This document shows, in pieces, positions 4,181-48,345 of a stretch of 64,000 bases of DNA. The notes below the pieces were generated by a model. The model saw only the letters and a list, made by a program, of their open reading frames with translations, did not search any database and was not told the origin of the DNA. Origin of the DNA: Candidatus Poribacteria bacterium (lineage in GTDB: Bacteria > Poribacteria > WGA-4E > PCPOR2b); assembly GCA_965218095.1 (NCBI GenBank), contig OZ244587.1, positions 3,744,001-3,808,000 on the forward strand, written 5' to 3'. The position numbers and the translations under genes are program-made. Numbering within the stretch: the stretch's first letter is position 1; each line of letters opens with the position of its first letter.

Positions 4181-7100
4181 CTAGCGCGCAAGCTTCTCAG
4201 TCGTAGGTTCCATCTGTGAAATCCAATCGCGCAACAGTTGTATAGCTTGGCGATCGACCACCGAAGTCGCCAGGGGCGGCATTTGGCCGGCGCCTCGACG
4301 CAACACACGATGGTAAATAATCGAACGGTCGGGGCTGCCGGGCGCAATGAGCATCGCGTTGGAGATTCCAAATGTGTCGTGCTGCGGGCGGACACCGAAG
4401 GTGTAGGTTTTATCCCGCTCTGCGGTGAACTCCAGCACGATATGCGCGTTGCCTCCCCCTGTGTGGACATGGCAATTTGCGCAGGCAGCATGCAGATAAG
4501 AACGGGCCCTCGCGTCAAGGGATTCTTGAGGGTTGTACGGATTAACCAGCTTGGGGTACTCCTCCGGGCGCTTCGGCAGCGGCTTGGTGAAAATGCCAAG
4601 ATGATCTAGCGTCCGAAGTTGGTTGTCGGATACGCCACCATAATCATGCGTCTTGTTCATTTGCATTGTGTTGAGCCCCAACACATAGTTGGCTGCGCGG
4701 CTGTGGCAGACCATACACTCAACCCGGCTGGGATAGCGCCAGATCTGTTCCCGACTCCCTTCAGGGGACTTTGAATCCTGAATCGTAAGGATACGATCCA
4801 TTCCATCAGCCGCCACAAGCGTCGCATCGGTCTGCTCGTCATTCCAGACATAGGAATATCCCACCCACTCGTTCTGCTGTCGGGTGAGCAACCGCGTTTC
4901 AATCCGATGCCTAGAGGTTGCTTTGAATCGAGATTGCTCTGAATCCTCGACGCTTCGTCGGGATGCAATCGGGGCAGGATTTCCTGCTTCCAGATCGAGC
5001 GCAAAGGTTTGAACCAGGACCGTCCCATCGGGAAAGGTCCACCCATGCGATGTCGTGAAGTCGATCTGGGAATCGCCCGGAAGCCCAATGAACCGCTCCA
5101 TGTGTGCACCATCAGCCCACAACGGCGCGTTGACCGAGTAGGGAATCAGCCCTGGAACGGTCTGATGATCTTTGACCGATGCGAACAAGCCAGTTCCACT
5201 CAGTCGAGTGGGGAATTTTGCGGTCAGTTCGTCTTTGGGTTTATGCTCCAACTGAAAGATTCCGCTGGCGAGATCTGCGATTAATATCTCGTCGTTGTGG
5301 TCAATCCCAAAGCTCACAATCTGCAGCGTCGTGTCGGCGATTTCCCTGTGCCAGATAATCCGCTCCCCATTGTGACGTAACGCCCAAATCTTGCCGGTCG
5401 CGTAGTCACCATAGATATAGGCGCCACGCAGCTCTGGAAACTTCGATCCGTAGTACACAACCCCACCGGTGATGGAGCGAGATTCGGAGTGGGGATGTTC
5501 GACCGTTGGCTTGACGATGGGCGTAGGGCCAGGTTTTCGGTTCAGGAAGAACGGATGGCTACCTTCGTAGAGACTCCAACCGTAGTTATCCCCACGACGA
5601 ACAAGGTGAATCATCTCCCACTGATCTTGCCCGACATTTCCCACCCAAAGATGTCCTGTTTCTTGATCAAAGGTCATACGCCAGGGATTGCGGATACCGT
5701 AGGCCCAGATTTCGGGTCGTGCGCCTTCAAAGCCGATGAAAGGGTTGTCGGCGGGGACCGAATAAGCTCGTCCTGCTTCGGGATGATCGACGTCGATCCG
5801 CATGATCGTCGCAAGCACATTGCTTATATCTTGGCCCTTGGGTTCTCTGTCATAACTTCCGGGCTGGCCGGTGAGGTTTGTATCGGAGTCCATGGCGCCG
5901 TCGCCCGCAGCAATGTAGAGGAATCCATCGGGACCAAACGCCAGATCGCCGCCATTGTGGTTGTTCGACTGCCACTCCATGATAATCGGCTCAGAATGCT
6001 TGTCACAGTGATACGGCGGCTGACGCTCGACACTGCATCGCGATATACGGTTCTTTGTTTCTGTAACTTTTCCACCCTTGGGCCCGTTGCTGACGACATA
6101 AAGGTCGCCGTTCTTTTCGTAATCAGGATGGAATGTCAAGCCATAGGTCTCGCGGCCCGTGTCGAAAAGGAGTTCGGCCTCATCAACCTCCGGATCATCC
6201 GTGAAGCGACGAATCTTACCGCCTAGCTCTATCACCAGGAGTTGGTCTGTACCCGGTTCGCGCTCAATGTACACCGGTTGATCCAATTTCAGTTTGGTGA
6301 ACGTCTGTTTGGGGTGCAATGACAATGGCGGGCCGGTTTCCGCCGTTTTGCCGGTCAGGGTTGATAAAAACGCGAGTAAATCATAATACTCAGCGACCGA
6401 CAGTATCTGTGAGTAGTTGGTCGGCATCGGGGAAGTAACATTGAGTCGTTTACCCAAAGCACGACTATACTCCGGATCGCCGGCGAGGTCTTCGTACTTG
6501 TCGAAGGTTCGTTCGCTGCCATCAATTTTTAAGGTAATTTCAGCCTCGTTTTCAGAGATGAGCTCTCCAACAATCGGTTCATCATTATATGGGGTCACAA
6601 TCGCCTGGACCTTCACATTCGATTTTGACACCGTTTGCACCCCATCCCCAACCTTGAGTGTGATGTTTTTGTCAGTCGCTTCAATGAGATCGCCGCTTAT
6701 CGGCGTTGTGGAATCAGCAGGCATGACCTGAATCCAAAAATATCCCTTTTCCTTTAGATTGACCAACGCCTCGATAGGTTCGGGGTCAAGTTCGCTCAAT
6801 AGAATGGCCCTTTCCGTTTCAGCCCCGTTAGCTCCTTTGATACGCAGAACGATTTTTTCGTTATCCCCGATAAGATCGGGATTCAAATTGCTCTGAATCC
6901 TCGATGCTTCATCGGGAGCAACCTGCGAGACGAGCGTTCCTTGAATCACAGCGCCGCCTGTTCGCACAGTTGCTAGACCGTATCCGCGCACAATTCCGGC
7001 ATTTGGTTTAAGGATTGATTCTTCGATATAACGGACACTATTTAATGTGGCAATATCCGTTAAATCAGGCCCCAGAACAATTTCAACCCCCTCGTCAAGG

Positions 7101-7924
7101 CGCTGATTGACTGGTTTTTCAATCCCATCGACATTGTGGCATGCAATACATTTTGCAGTATTGACGAAGACATTTTTGCCGCGCTCGATATCGCCGGCAA
7201 GAACGGGTGGACGCGCCTCCATCTCCTTTGCAACACTTTGTATATCAATGAAAGGTTCAAACGGCGTCAGATCTACCTCTCCTCCCTGGCTCTGAAGGAA
7301 CGCGATGACAGCTTCAATCTCCAAATTCGATAAACTGATCGGGGGCTTCCAGGCCGGCATCATAGTTTTGCCATAACCAGGGACAAGGAATGCGTCCGGG
7401 GCATATAGGGACTCAATGAGATACGCTTTCGACCCCATGTCCGGTTTCGGCTTCGCCGAGAATCCCGCGAAGCGGGGCTTTCGTGTCGCGGCTCTCGCCC
7501 CGATATCCGTGAGATCAGGGCCTCTACTCTTCGGCGCCGAGGGATTCAGCGTGTGACAGGAGTAGCACGTCCCCTTTCCGTTAAAGATTGCTTTCCCTGC
7601 TTCGACAAATGCCTCTGGCTTACGTTCTATGCTTGAAAGATTGACTTGCGTTTCAGGTACGATGCTATCGGCGTCAGGAAACCCCACAACGTGGGATGTC
7701 GTCCACGGAATGCGCCGATCAATTCCGTAAGGTTTCTGGTTCTCCGTGTTTTTGCCGGAAGACGCTTCTCCATGGTTGTCCGACATCAGCATAACACCTA
7801 CCCCAAACGCCAAAAGCACACCGGCGACCGTACAGAAACGGGCAAGACGCAAAACATGCCTGGCAATTTGCCGTCCATCGCGGAGGCTGGCAGGTCGGAG
7901 AAGCATAAAACCGATGATAGGCAT
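4181..7924 (-). CDS. Multiheme cytochrome c / PQQ-dependent glucose-sorbosone dehydrogenase (GSDH) fusion protein
   Basis: Four CxxCH motifs (CYSCH, CIACH, CMVCH, CANCH); GSDH motifs HNGGDLAFGPDGFLYI, EIWAYGIRNPWR, SITGG; C-terminal YSVNAPLWADGA...MPPLA region. Start placed at ATG 7924 (GAGGT RBS) because the track start 7966 lies inside the predicted promoter. Confidence 0.88.
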   Translation of the reverse strand: MPIIGFMLLRPASLRDGRQIARHVLRLARFCTVAGVLLAFGVGVMLMSDNHGEASSGKNTENQKPYGIDRRIPWTTSHVVGFPDADSIVPETQVNLSSIERKPEAFVEAGKAIFNGKGTCYSCHTLNPSAPKSRGPDLTDIGARAATRKPRFAGFSAKPKPDMGSKAYLIESLYAPDAFLVPGYGKTMMPAWKPPISLSNLEIEAVIAFLQSQGGEVDLTPFEPFIDIQSVAKEMEARPPVLAGDIERGKNVFVNTAKCIACHNVDGIEKPVNQRLDEGVEIVLGPDLTDIATLNSVRYIEESILKPNAGIVRGYGLATVRTGGAVIQGTLVSQVAPDEASRIQSNLNPDLIGDNEKIVLRIKGANGAETERAILLSELDPEPIEALVNLKEKGYFWIQVMPADSTTPISGDLIEATDKNITLKVGDGVQTVSKSNVKVQAIVTPYNDEPIVGELISENEAEITLKIDGSERTFDKYEDLAGDPEYSRALGKRLNVTSPMPTNYSQILSVAEYYDLLAFLSTLTGKTAETGPPLSLHPKQTFTKLKLDQPVYIEREPGTDQLLVIELGGKIRRFTDDPEVDEAELLFDTGRETYGLTFHPDYEKNGDLYVVSNGPKGGKVTETKNRISRCSVERQPPYHCDKHSEPIIMEWQSNNHNGGDLAFGPDGFLYIAAGDGAMDSDTNLTGQPGSYDREPKGQDISNVLATIMRIDVDHPEAGRAYSVPADNPFIGFEGARPEIWAYGIRNPWRMTFDQETGHLWVGNVGQDQWEMIHLVRRGDNYGWSLYEGSHPFFLNRKPGPTPIVKPTVEHPHSESRSITGGVVYYGSKFPELRGAYIYGDYATGKIWALRHNGERIIWHREIADTTLQIVSFGIDHNDEILIADLASGIFQLEHKPKDELTAKFPTRLSGTGLFASVKDHQTVPGLIPYSVNAPLWADGAHMERFIGLPGDSQIDFTTSHGWTFPDGTVLVQTFALDLEAGNPAPIASRRSVEDSEQSRFKATSRHRIETRLLTRQQNEWVGYSYVWNDEQTDATLVAADGMDRILTIQDSKSPEGSREQIWRYPSRVECMVCHSRAANYVLGLNTMQMNKTHDYGGVSDNQLRTLDHLGIFTKPLPKRPEEYPKLVNPYNPQESLDARARSYLHAACANCHVHTGGGNAHIVLEFTAERDKTYTFGVRPQHDTFGISNAMLIAPGSPDRSIIYHRVLRRGAGQMPPLATSVVDRQAIQLLRDWISQMEPTTEKLAR
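4916..4972 (-). repeat. Nested micro-insertion (27-bp unit containing a 30-bp unit at 4932-4961), in frame, +19 aa
   Basis: Minus strand gCC[CCGATTGCATC{CCGACGAAGCGTCGAGGATTCAGAGCAATC}TCGATTCAAAGCAACC]tct; removal gives NPA-SRHRIETRL. Confidence 0.85.
5837..5869. repeat. 33-bp in-frame insertion flanked by TGGCC direct repeats
   Basis: TGGCC at 5832-5836 and 5865-5869; protein TGQ[PGSYDREPKGQ]DIS. Confidence 0.6.
6867..6923 (+). repeat. Nested micro-insertion (27-bp unit containing an inverted 30-bp unit at 6886-6915), in frame, +19 aa
   Basis: tCC[CCGATAAGATCGGGATTCA{AATTGCTCTGAATCCTCGATGCTTCATCGG}GAGCAACC]tg; removal gives LVSQ-DNEKIV. Confidence 0.88.
7443..7475 (-). repeat. 33-bp double-hairpin micro-insertion, in frame, +11 aa
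   Basis: Minus strand gCC[CCGCTTCGCGGGATTCTCGGCGAAGCCGAAACC]gg; removal gives ATRKP-DMGSK. Confidence 0.78.
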
Positions 7925-7956
7925 CGCAAAAACCTCGATAAAAGATTGACAAGCAC

Positions 7957-7985
7957 AATTTATCACATTTCATCATTTCCGTCAA
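7957..7985 (-). promoter_or_regulatory. Putative sigma70 promoter of the cytochrome/GSDH gene
   Basis: Minus strand TTGACG-17 nt-TAAATT with TGn extension. Confidence 0.6.
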
Positions 7986-21461: not shown

Positions 21462-21521
21462 ATTGCTCCTGATGAAGCATTGAGGATTCAGAGCAATCTG
21501 AATGCCGGTGCTTCATCGGGG
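21462..21521. repeat. Intergenic nested micro-insertion pair (30-bp unit 21469-21498 inside an inverted unit)
   Basis: ATTGCTC[CTGATGAAGCATTGAGGATTCAGAGCAATC]TGAATGCCGGTGCTTCATCGGGG. Confidence 0.85.
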
Positions 21522-40397: not shown

Positions 40398-40807
40398 TTT
40401 CGTGAACCGTGATGCGTAACCATGATGTGTGATGAAAAAACTCACTTGTCATTAATAGGACTTACGCAAGCTCCATGCGAATCGCAGGAGATTTGAGTTG
40501 TTGTCGTAAATACTCCTCCAACACTCCGTGTTTGACCTGATAAATGGTTTGCTGGGTCTGATACGCCACGTGCTCGAGCCGAATCCAAACGAATAATGCA
40601 CAACCAATATGGTTGCGAACAAGCTGTGCCACTCGGCATTGACAACCTTCAACTCCTGTCAACTGTTTGGCTTGCCGGTGAAATTGCTCAATCTTCCAGC
40701 GCTAGTTACACGCCTGTTGTGCAACCGAAGTGTCGTTTTGAGCCAAGTCGTTGGTCACAACATAATCCGTGCGTCTGTTAGAAGACGCGACCCAGAAAAG
40801 TTTCACC

Positions 40808-40834
40808 CTCGATCTTATCGGGATTCAGAGCACC
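40808..40834 (+). repeat. 27-bp micro-insertion in the IS701 transposase (introduces TGA)
   Basis: CACC[CTCGATCTTATCGGGATTCAGAGCACC]; removal restores HKV-KLF. Confidence 0.85.
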
Positions 40835-40951
40835 TTGTGATGCTTGGGAAATCCGCTGATTTTGAGAAGTTTCCCGCGTCGGATTTTGGTCTCACTCCAC
40901 TGCAATCGATCAACACGCGGGTAAGGCTTTTGCGCATTGGAATCATCCACC

Positions 40952-40978
40952 CCGATAAGATCGAGATTCGAAGCAACC
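40952..40978 (+). repeat. 27-bp micro-insertion in the IS701 transposase, in frame +9 aa
   Basis: CACC[CCGATAAGATCGAGATTCGAAGCAACC]tg; protein NRQV[ASNLDLIGV]DDS. Confidence 0.87.
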
Positions 40979-48181: not shown

Positions 48182-48345
48182 CTCCCCCTTCGGCTGAGCT
48201 CAGGTCCAAGCCTTGCCAAGGGGGAGTTAGAGGGGGTTGGTGCTTTGCACCATTGCCAAATCCGACGGTTCGGATCCGGTTATGGCCCCGATGGATCGAG
48301 ATTCAAAGCGACTTGGATTTGGCAATCCAAGCCAAGCGAGTGGGA
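48182..48345. repeat. Cluster of REP-like palindromes carrying micro-insertions (48191-48214 and about 48288-48313)
   Basis: CTCCCCCTT[24 bp]GCCAAGGGGGAG; TTGCCAAATCC...GGATTTGGCAA enclosing CCGATGGATCGAGATTCAAAGCGAC. Confidence 0.75.

Follow-up and report, generated by a model that had tools for sequence, protein, structure and literature searches.

Repetitive extragenic palindromic sequences (REPs), which carry GTAG as a 5' tetranucleotide, together with bacterial interspersed mosaic elements (BIMEs) and the doublets termed REPINs, are the described systems closest to the element examined here, a hairpin-and-tail unit of 27-30 nt that recurs, alone and nested within its own kind, in the genome of a Candidatus Poribacteria bacterium. 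We studied it from a 64,000-nt stretch of that genome (contig OZ244587.1, positions 3,744,001 to 3,808,000), referred to below in its full length as the window. In the REP literature, GTAG is described as a REP recognition motif (PMC8266576) and as a 'conserved GTAG tetranucleotide' (PMC3333891). The E. coli enzyme TnpA_REP cleaves single-stranded DNA at C^T sites on both sides of the REP hairpin, with TGCC^TGAT as the type I site, and in the proposal of the same authors integration occurs by recombination with a target where a REP is already present (PMC3333891). Cleavage and strand transfer have been shown in vitro (PMC3333891); the spread of REPs, BIMEs and REPINs and the origin of their doublets are still mostly a matter of models.

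Mobile short repeats of another kind are the small dispersed repeats (SDRs) of Nostoc and other cyanobacteria. These are reportedly 21-27 nt long, some of them with hairpins, as Elhai et al. are said to have described (2008, Genome Res 18:1484). One of them, SDR5, has its insertion point between bases three and four of the HIP1 sequence (PMC4390886). Among the titles and abstract starts listed in literature searches (10 of 31 papers in the search aimed at Poribacteria), none describes such repeats in Poribacteria.

Set beside these systems, the Poribacteria family provides unusually clean natural evidence, since it combines exact element bounds, a consensus in the flanks, and paralogous filled and empty nested sites that agree on one base. 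If the units do nest stepwise, as discussed below, these sites would be a natural record of how palindromic doublets originate.

The composite at W6866-6922 and its unit family

Positions in the window are prefixed W and positions in the genome contig C1; G000 denotes this genome, a single 6.35-Mb contig of 50% G+C. The basic unit is exactly 27 nt long and consists of a hairpin with a 6-bp stem, CCCGAT-loop-ATCGGG, followed by the 12-nt tail ATTCAAAGCAAC. In a 30-nt variant the hairpin is CGATG-AAG-CATCG and the tail ends in GGATTCARAGCAAT. The composite at W6866-6922, which reads CCCGATAAGATCGGGATTCAA, then ATTGCTCTGAATCCTCGATGCTTCATCGGG, then AGCAAC, is a 27-nt unit (CCCGAT-AAG-ATCGGG plus ATTCAAAGCAAC) split at GGGATTCAA^AGCAAC by an inverted copy of the 30-nt variant. 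It lies in a long gene that contains a second composite:

6866..6886, plus strand: left part of the host unit, hairpin CCCGAT-AAG-ATCGGG and first tail bases ATTCAA; joined to W6917-6922 it is the exact family consensus
6887..6916, minus strand: inner 30-nt unit, CCCGATGAAGCATCGAGGATTCAGAGCAAT in minus-strand reading, inverted relative to the host; exact match, an insert that is absent from paralogues elsewhere
6917..6922, plus strand: AGCAAC, the right part of the host tail; the CTG after it matches the flank consensus YTG
4181..7966, minus strand: open reading frame (ORF) of 1261 aa with cytochrome c and glucose/sorbosone dehydrogenase domains; both 57-bp composites are in frame
4917..4975, minus strand: second composite, 57 bp, in the same gene; 27-nt host CCCGATTGCAT^C..GATTCAAAGCAAC, bounds ambiguous by 2 nt

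The original prediction, made from the window sequence, had reported a 30-bp unit lying inverted at the same junction in two hosts. This is borne out, with an exact match at W6886-6915 on the minus strand and three mismatches at W21469-21498 on the plus strand; for the first copy the sequence stands but the bounds move by one base, to W6887-6916. We prefer the shifted cut because the host without its insert then reads CCCGATAAGATCGGGATTCAAAGCAAC, the exact family consensus, and because the paralogous empty sites fit without extra changes. Excision had also been said to leave a clean 27-mer matching a free copy at W40952. The two agree at only 24 of 27 positions, and the sequence at W40952 is no independent solitary insertion, being an in-frame part of a transposase gene of an insertion sequence (IS) found in at least three IS copies.

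The composite at W6866-6922 encodes the peptide VAPDEASRIQSNLNPDLIG, and all nine orthologues of the 1261-aa ORF, which are 72-75% identical to it, lack exactly 19 aa at this place. The same nine lack exactly 19 aa at W4917-4975, where the 30-mer, with the compensated stem CGACG/CGTCG, sits in direct orientation within the 3' arm of the host hairpin. The CTG that follows W6922 is a Gln codon on the coding strand and is kept in the orthologues. Public contigs from four runs in three studies contain the W6866-6922 composite with 0-3 differences, one contig spanning the whole of it; the composite is therefore not an assembly artefact. No allele shorter by some or all of the 57 bp was seen in the contigs of these four runs, which break at repeats and drop rare variants. 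The orthologues and the contigs are compatible both with a single 57-bp event at W6866-6922 and with a 27-bp event followed by a 30-bp one.

The family numbers about 100 copies in G000. Its tail GATTCAAAGCAA has 52 exact matches and 128 with at most one mismatch, and searching with a profile of 54 dereplicated copies gives 58 hits at E<=1e-3, a number that rises to 80 at E<=0.1 and to 103 at E<=1. Length is 27 nt in 25 of the 39 strict dereplicated copies on which our length and flank statistics rest, the others ranging from 25 to 35 nt and differing in the loop. Stem variants are compensated (CCCGAC/GTCGGG and CCCGC/GCGGG; CGACG/CGTCG in the 30-mer). Motifs were counted across 31 genomes, G000 and 30 others, with the reversed pattern as control. 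The motif ATCGGGATTCAAAGCAAC (at most two mismatches) has 73 matches in G000, 55-159 in each of the ten genomes of genus g4 and 48 in genome G001, falling to 2-4 per genome in genus g5 and to 0-5 in other families; the reversed motif has none in 30 of the 31 genomes and one in G030. Judging by these motif matches, the unit family is present across the family-level clade of G000.

Exact inserts, their flanks and the nested sites

Comparison with orthologues shows that the unit family is mobile, since orthologues lack exactly 27 bp in four genes and exactly 57 bp at the two composite sites. The four genes code for a GH3 hydrolase, a CotH kinase, a sarcosine-oxidase-like protein and a fused glycyl-tRNA synthetase, and in each of them exactly the 9 aa encoded by the unit are absent from the orthologues of 4-5 relatives. 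The inserted 27 nt are the consensus unit itself, from CCCGAT through AGCAAC, and there is therefore no target duplication; past a 1-nt ambiguity, no flanking direct repeats were found at the 27-bp inserts in the four genes or at the two 57-bp inserts. The CotH orthologue of genome G014 bears a unit of its own at a different place, so that the family has moved in more than one lineage.

The flanks are conserved. Among the 39 strict copies, the base before the unit is C in 36, the first base after it is T in 25 and C in 9, the second is T in 29, the third G in 32 and the fourth A in 18; in these sequences, insertion sites read C^YTG(A) on the strand of the unit. The YTG that follows the unit belongs to the target rather than to the element, because the orthologues have the flanking Gln codon (CAG).

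Insertions are often intragenic and in frame. Stop-to-stop ORFs of at least 200 aa served as a proxy for genes, and orthologues confirmed five of the genes. Of 80 units, 27 fall within such ORFs, compared with 72% of 3000 random positions; intergenic DNA is therefore preferred and genes are tolerated. Within the ORFs, 18 of the 27 units read as (V/A)AL(N/S)PDxIG, two are read in the other frame of that strand, and seven are read on the unit's own strand. A 27-nt mobile unit thus sits in frame in about twenty genes of a little-studied symbiont phylum, that for glycyl-tRNA synthetase included, which is of relevance for gene annotation and protein evolution.

All 11 copies of the 30-nt variant in G000 sit within another micro-element. 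Four lie inverted in a tail, at GGGATTCAA^AGCAAC (W6887, W21468, C1:4739561 and a degenerate copy at C1:5119796), a junction that reads GCT^TTGAAT on the complement of the tail. Two more have the same orientation as their host, a 27-mer, and interrupt the 3' arm of its hairpin at AT^CGG (W4917-4975 and C1:5099602). The remaining five occupy the corresponding AT^CGG site in units of a second family, GGTTGGAGCGAAGTCCGATCAGAT^CGGACGAGCACGG. The junction of the W21462-21521 composite is identical to that of W6866-6922, and its parts are as follows:

21462..21467, minus strand: tail end of the host, AGCAAT on the minus strand
21468..21497, plus strand: inner 30-mer, CCTGATGAAGCATTGAGGATTCAGAGCAAT, with three mismatches
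21498..21521, minus strand: hairpin and first tail bases of the host, 30-mer-like, CCCCGATGAAGCACCGGCATTCAG on the minus strand; intergenic

Filled and empty versions of the nested site exist in two sets of paralogues. C1:4739539 is longer than its paralogue C1:4347347 by exactly 30 bp, and the flanks of the two can be aligned for more than 150 bp; C1:5119790 exceeds its paralogues C1:2943121 and C1:4715997 by 29 bp. Here nesting was therefore a separate event. The junction motif GATTCARATTGCTCTGAATC (at most two mismatches) has three matches in G000 and between 1 and 43 in 15 of the 30 other genomes, and the reversed motif has none in any of the 31; a chance origin of the shared junction is excluded. 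The core of the 30-mer is found in only three of the 31 genomes, with nine matches in G000, 17 in G014 and two in G017. At the same tail junction sit 16 of the 17 copies in G014 (nine of them in one larger repeat and seven with distinct hosts and flanks; the last stands alone) and both copies in G017.

We rejected the GATTCARATTGCTCTGAATC junction as a pure nesting marker, as 24 of the 40 places covered in G014, out of 43, belong to a different larger repeat, so that raw GATTCARATTGCTCTGAATC counts overstate the number of 30-mer composites. In that repeat, present in G014 and other g4 genomes (L066, L068-L070, L052-L056 and others), an inverted family-like unit stands after GATTCAG and before GCAATAAT, resembling a unit in tail-like sequence that has no host hairpin. 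A snap-back (fold-back) copy of the host was also ruled out as the source of the inner arm, which is always the 30-mer whatever the host hairpin; differing hosts with a constant inner unit and cut point argue for targeted insertion and against fold-back copying.

These sites bear on what had been proposed for the composites. The view that each is two events holds at C1:4739539 and C1:5119790, whose paralogues lack the insert; at W6866-6922 itself, all nine orthologues lack the whole 57 bp. The tail does act as a preferred target, because the insertion point is the same in all tail composites, across different hosts. The hosts indeed differ in their hairpins (loops AAG, AGG and of the CTATG type, one host being itself 30-mer-like), as do the hosts and flanks of the seven G014 composites; the outer units of the composites are thus not identical. 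Solitary 30-mers are nearly lacking, with none among 11 in G000, one among 17 in G014 and none among two in G017, which qualifies the two-event view. The alternative that a composite moves as one piece also holds in places, namely at five loci with unrelated flanks and in the nine G014 composites of one larger repeat. A stepwise route to longer REP-like palindromes is plausible, since composites fold into long hairpins.

The window contains further units outside the composites:

40951..40977, plus strand: monomer 27-nt unit, in frame in an IS transposase gene (…KSNRQ-VASNLDLIG-VDDS…)
40807..40834, plus strand: diverged second unit in the same IS copy and orientation, starting 144 nt before the W40951 unit
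48287..48312, plus strand: further monomer of 26 nt with a 2-nt loop
7442..7474, minus strand: lineage-specific in-frame insert of 33 bp in the gene of the 1261-aa ORF, with hairpin CCCGC-TTC-GCGGG-ATTC and then a second small hairpin; membership in the family uncertain

A paralogous IS family lacks the 9 aa of the W40951-40977 unit. The 1261-aa ORF has one more lineage-specific in-frame insert, of 21 bp (W7646-7666), whose sequence is single-copy in the genome.

The second micro-element family mentioned above has the hairpin GTCCGA-TTC-TCGGAC and the tail GAGCAC, an architecture like that of the 27-nt family. It occupies about 70 places (for example C1:79631, 201883 and 4569657), none of them seen in the window. 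The sequence CGGACGAGCAC has 140 matches with at most one mismatch, about half of them with the second-family hairpin, and one copy lies about 400 bp from a gene for a REP-associated tyrosine transposase (RAYT) at C1:6008890-6009357. The most frequent 14-mers of G000 belong to another repeat, TAGGTTCTGTTGACATTT, with about 150 occurrences per strand; it is probably the end of an IS or of a miniature inverted-repeat transposable element (MITE), and it abuts a unit at C1:4553903.

Proposed single-strand transposition and its rivals

The units have exact ends, a hairpin with a short conserved cut site next to it, and no duplication at the target, features that fit single-strand HUH transposition of the IS200/IS605 and RAYT kinds. 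Going by these sequence features, we give even chances to the units moving by HUH/RAYT-type single-strand transposition, with self-nesting at the tail. The units would travel in single-stranded form, with an HUH tyrosine enzyme of the RAYT/TnpA_REP kind cutting and rejoining them in trans; this enzyme would bind a resident hairpin and cleave nearby at N^YTGA. Every resident unit would then be a ready target, because the complement of its tail holds the only YTGA that the consensus contains on either strand, at the nesting point and 8 nt from the foot of the hairpin. Insertion there would produce an inverted doublet able to fold as a long REPIN-like hairpin, and such doublets might later spread as one piece or within larger repeats. 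At four loci two units stand head to tail with zero spacer (AGCAAC directly followed by CCCGAT), the outcome expected of insertion at the right-end site of a resident unit. A RAYT model has eight matches in G000, three of them above the cut-off (C1:6008878-6009330, C1:2554459-2554920 and C1:626450-626863), and there is one IS200-type transposase gene; matches per genome do not track the copy number of the unit, the g5 genomes having 3-5 matches and only 2-4 units. Oligonucleotides and the RAYT proteins of G000 would permit a direct test of the system.

A number of observations weigh against transposition of this kind. Neither GTAG nor CTAC occurs in the unit consensus, which starts (C)CCCGAT; the base that precedes the cut at the nested sites is T, not C; and the AT^CGG sites in hairpin arms do not fit YTGA. 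At none of the six Y1/RAYT-like loci examined does a family unit lie in the flanks or closer than 5 kb. The REPIN model holds single REPs to be immobile (PMC3116915), and a single 27-nt hairpin is smaller than any substrate shown to transpose. The 30-mer is patchily spread, over three of 31 genomes, public contigs have only the filled form at W6866-6922, and cumulative GC skew is flat and noisy, marking no origin or terminus from which to judge a replication-strand bias.

The most serious rival makes the whole 57-nt doublet the entity that replicates, on the pattern of REPINs. The W6866-6922 composite would then have arrived in one step, the nested-looking copies would be copied doublets, and lone 27-mers would in part be decayed or reduced doublets. 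We consider this possible but rather doubtful. It would explain why both inserts in the 1261-aa ORF are exactly 57 bp, with no 27-bp intermediate among the orthologues, why the 30-mer is almost never solitary, and why the AAG host and 30-mer of W6866-6922 recur together at three loci of G014 (L086, L092 and L098) that differ from it by a single base. The doublet is likewise the replicative unit in the REPIN model (PMC3116915). Composites of the second family and the 30-mer occur at five loci with unrelated flanks (intact hosts are found at C1:4569657 and C1:1270252), and W4917-4975 and C1:5099600 have in common the left half and the compensated 30-mer; taken together, these two facts imply that doublets also propagate. 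Doublets moreover fold far better than monomers. Folded as single-stranded DNA and compared with 200 shuffles, composites form a long imperfect hairpin with a 6-nt overhang at -13.7 to -18.2 kcal/mol (z -3.7 to -6.2), none of the shuffles being as good; the W21462 composite is at the lower end (-18.2 kcal/mol, z -6.2), whereas monomers fold weakly, the 30-mer alone reaching -3.6 kcal/mol (z -1.5). What speaks for stepwise nesting instead is that two paralogous sets include loci, homologous in the rest of their sequence, at which the host has no 30-mer, that composite hosts are as diverse in their hairpins as monomers are, and that 27-mers insert alone, as seen from the exact 27-bp gaps in orthologues of four genes. 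In addition, some 100 27-mers face four tail-nested composites in G000, and G014 has its one solitary 30-mer.

Copying without a dedicated enzyme, by gene conversion, hairpin template switching in replication or microhomology-mediated repair, would make the junction the place where repeats pair. Recombination between units has evidently left traces: C1:5866413 is a chimera of two 1.1-kb repeats with its crossover in a shared 33-nt unit (compare C1:1078974 and 3616364), the IS copy at C1:2599240 lacks the 141 bp between two direct units (compare 944016-944192), and many copies lie within larger repeats. We nevertheless judge this route unlikely as the source of the inserts, which have exact ends and no flanking homology in the unique GlyQS, GH3, CotH and sarcosine oxidase genes. 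Only 6 nt of homology (AGCAAC) adjoin the nested 30-mer on its right, the inner arm is always the 30-mer where snap-back would give the complement of the host hairpin, and the C^YTGA consensus of the flanks suggests cutting at a specific site. Much less probable still is that the units are ordinary MITEs, moved by the DDE transposase of a resident IS whose ends they mimic. G000 is rich in insertion sequences and MITEs and several units do lie inside IS copies, but there they sit mid-gene rather than at IS ends and are absent from paralogous IS; the inserted length equals the unit, with no target-site duplication, and terminal inverted repeats are absent. To our knowledge, 27 nt is also below the size of any known MITE. 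We find it scarcely credible, finally, that the repeat is no mobile DNA at all and is kept by function, as a selected protein motif (V/A)AL(N/S)PDxIG or as a regulatory RNA or terminator. The dominant reading in one frame (18 of the 27 units in long ORFs) and the enrichment outside long ORFs could be taken in its favour. The frame bias is explained by stops, which the consensus has in one of the three frames of each strand. What is conserved is the DNA sequence, whichever strand the unit is on and also where it lies between genes. Orthologues do without the motif altogether, so that it is not needed for function and this explanation is largely refuted; for an RNA, a search of the 64-kb window against Rfam matched no family.

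Single-strand transposition with nesting at the tail is therefore the reading that we prefer. A wider form of it, that a hairpin and tail of 27-30 nt are a complete substrate for a RAYT-type HUH enzyme acting in trans, with their own cleavage and target site, that such units nest stepwise into doublets like those of REPINs and BIMEs, and that they also remodel essential proteins by in-frame loops of 9 or 19 aa, is put forward tentatively and with less than even confidence.

Another locus of G000 (C1:3420749-3432513) has a REPtron-like look. There a RAYT-like ORF below the family cut-off (C1:3422003-3422785) has copies of a third hairpin repeat to its left and right, AGAAACCGAGTTTT…AAAACTCGGTTTCT, the 12-mers of which occur about 100 times, and it adjoins a CRISPR array of 115 repeats at 71-75 nt spacing. 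The 37-nt CRISPR repeat (C1:3424086-3432513) reads CCCCGATGAA then GGGGACTGAAAG, and the 30-mer at W6887-6916 reads CCCGATGAAG then GAGGATTCAGAG; they have a 9-mer in common and a similar 3' part, which may be chance. CRISPRs have been speculated to derive from REPIN-like elements (PMC3116915).

Comparison with known systems

The IS200/IS605 family resembles these units in its single-strand HUH transposition without duplication, its short specific flank and its sub-terminal hairpins (PMC6006769, PMC3333891). Its members have two different hairpin ends and a transposase that they carry or derive from, whereas the Poribacteria element is one hairpin of 27-30 nt. From DDE-type MITEs it differs in having neither terminal inverted repeats nor a target-site duplication.

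With the SDRs of Nostoc the family has a likeness of kind, in its size, in the precision of its insertion, and in the mobility of a short repeat as shown by presence and absence at orthologous or paralogous sites. The SDRs belong to another phylum and are unrelated in sequence, and G000 has no excess of HIP1 (156 copies against about 97 expected). Closer in their effect on proteins are the Rickettsia palindromic elements (RPEs), palindromic repeats found in frame in unrelated metabolic genes, to each of which they add a conserved peptide (PMC10969869). RPEs are about 150 bp long, five times the length of our unit (PMC10969869), whose peptide has 9 aa and those of its composites 19 aa; the excerpts of PMC10969869 used here make no mention of self-nesting.

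The family is best described as one of REP/REPIN-like micro-elements that fail four testable features of REPs, namely GTAG, a REPtron, extragenic location and dominance of doublets. The unit has no GTAG motif, no RAYT gene at the six loci is flanked by Poribacteria units, and a third of the copies lie in long ORFs, so that the family is not extragenic. Monomers predominate, with four tail-nested doublets against about 100 units, and a single 27-nt unit inserts alone, unlike the immobile singlets of REPIN theory (PMC3116915). The doublet, too, is built differently, as one unit splitting the tail of another rather than as two units and a spacer. What the family has in common with REPs, BIMEs and REPINs is a short imperfect palindrome in high copy number (27-30 nt, with a stem of 5-6 bp) beside a conserved single-stranded flank, inverted doublets that fold as long hairpins, sequence conservation across genera, and RAYT genes in the genome. 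Its junction consensus, C^YTGA, is similar to the sites cleaved by TnpA_REP, C^T and TGCC^TGAT (PMC3333891), and a published model sends integration to a target that already bears a REP (PMC3333891).

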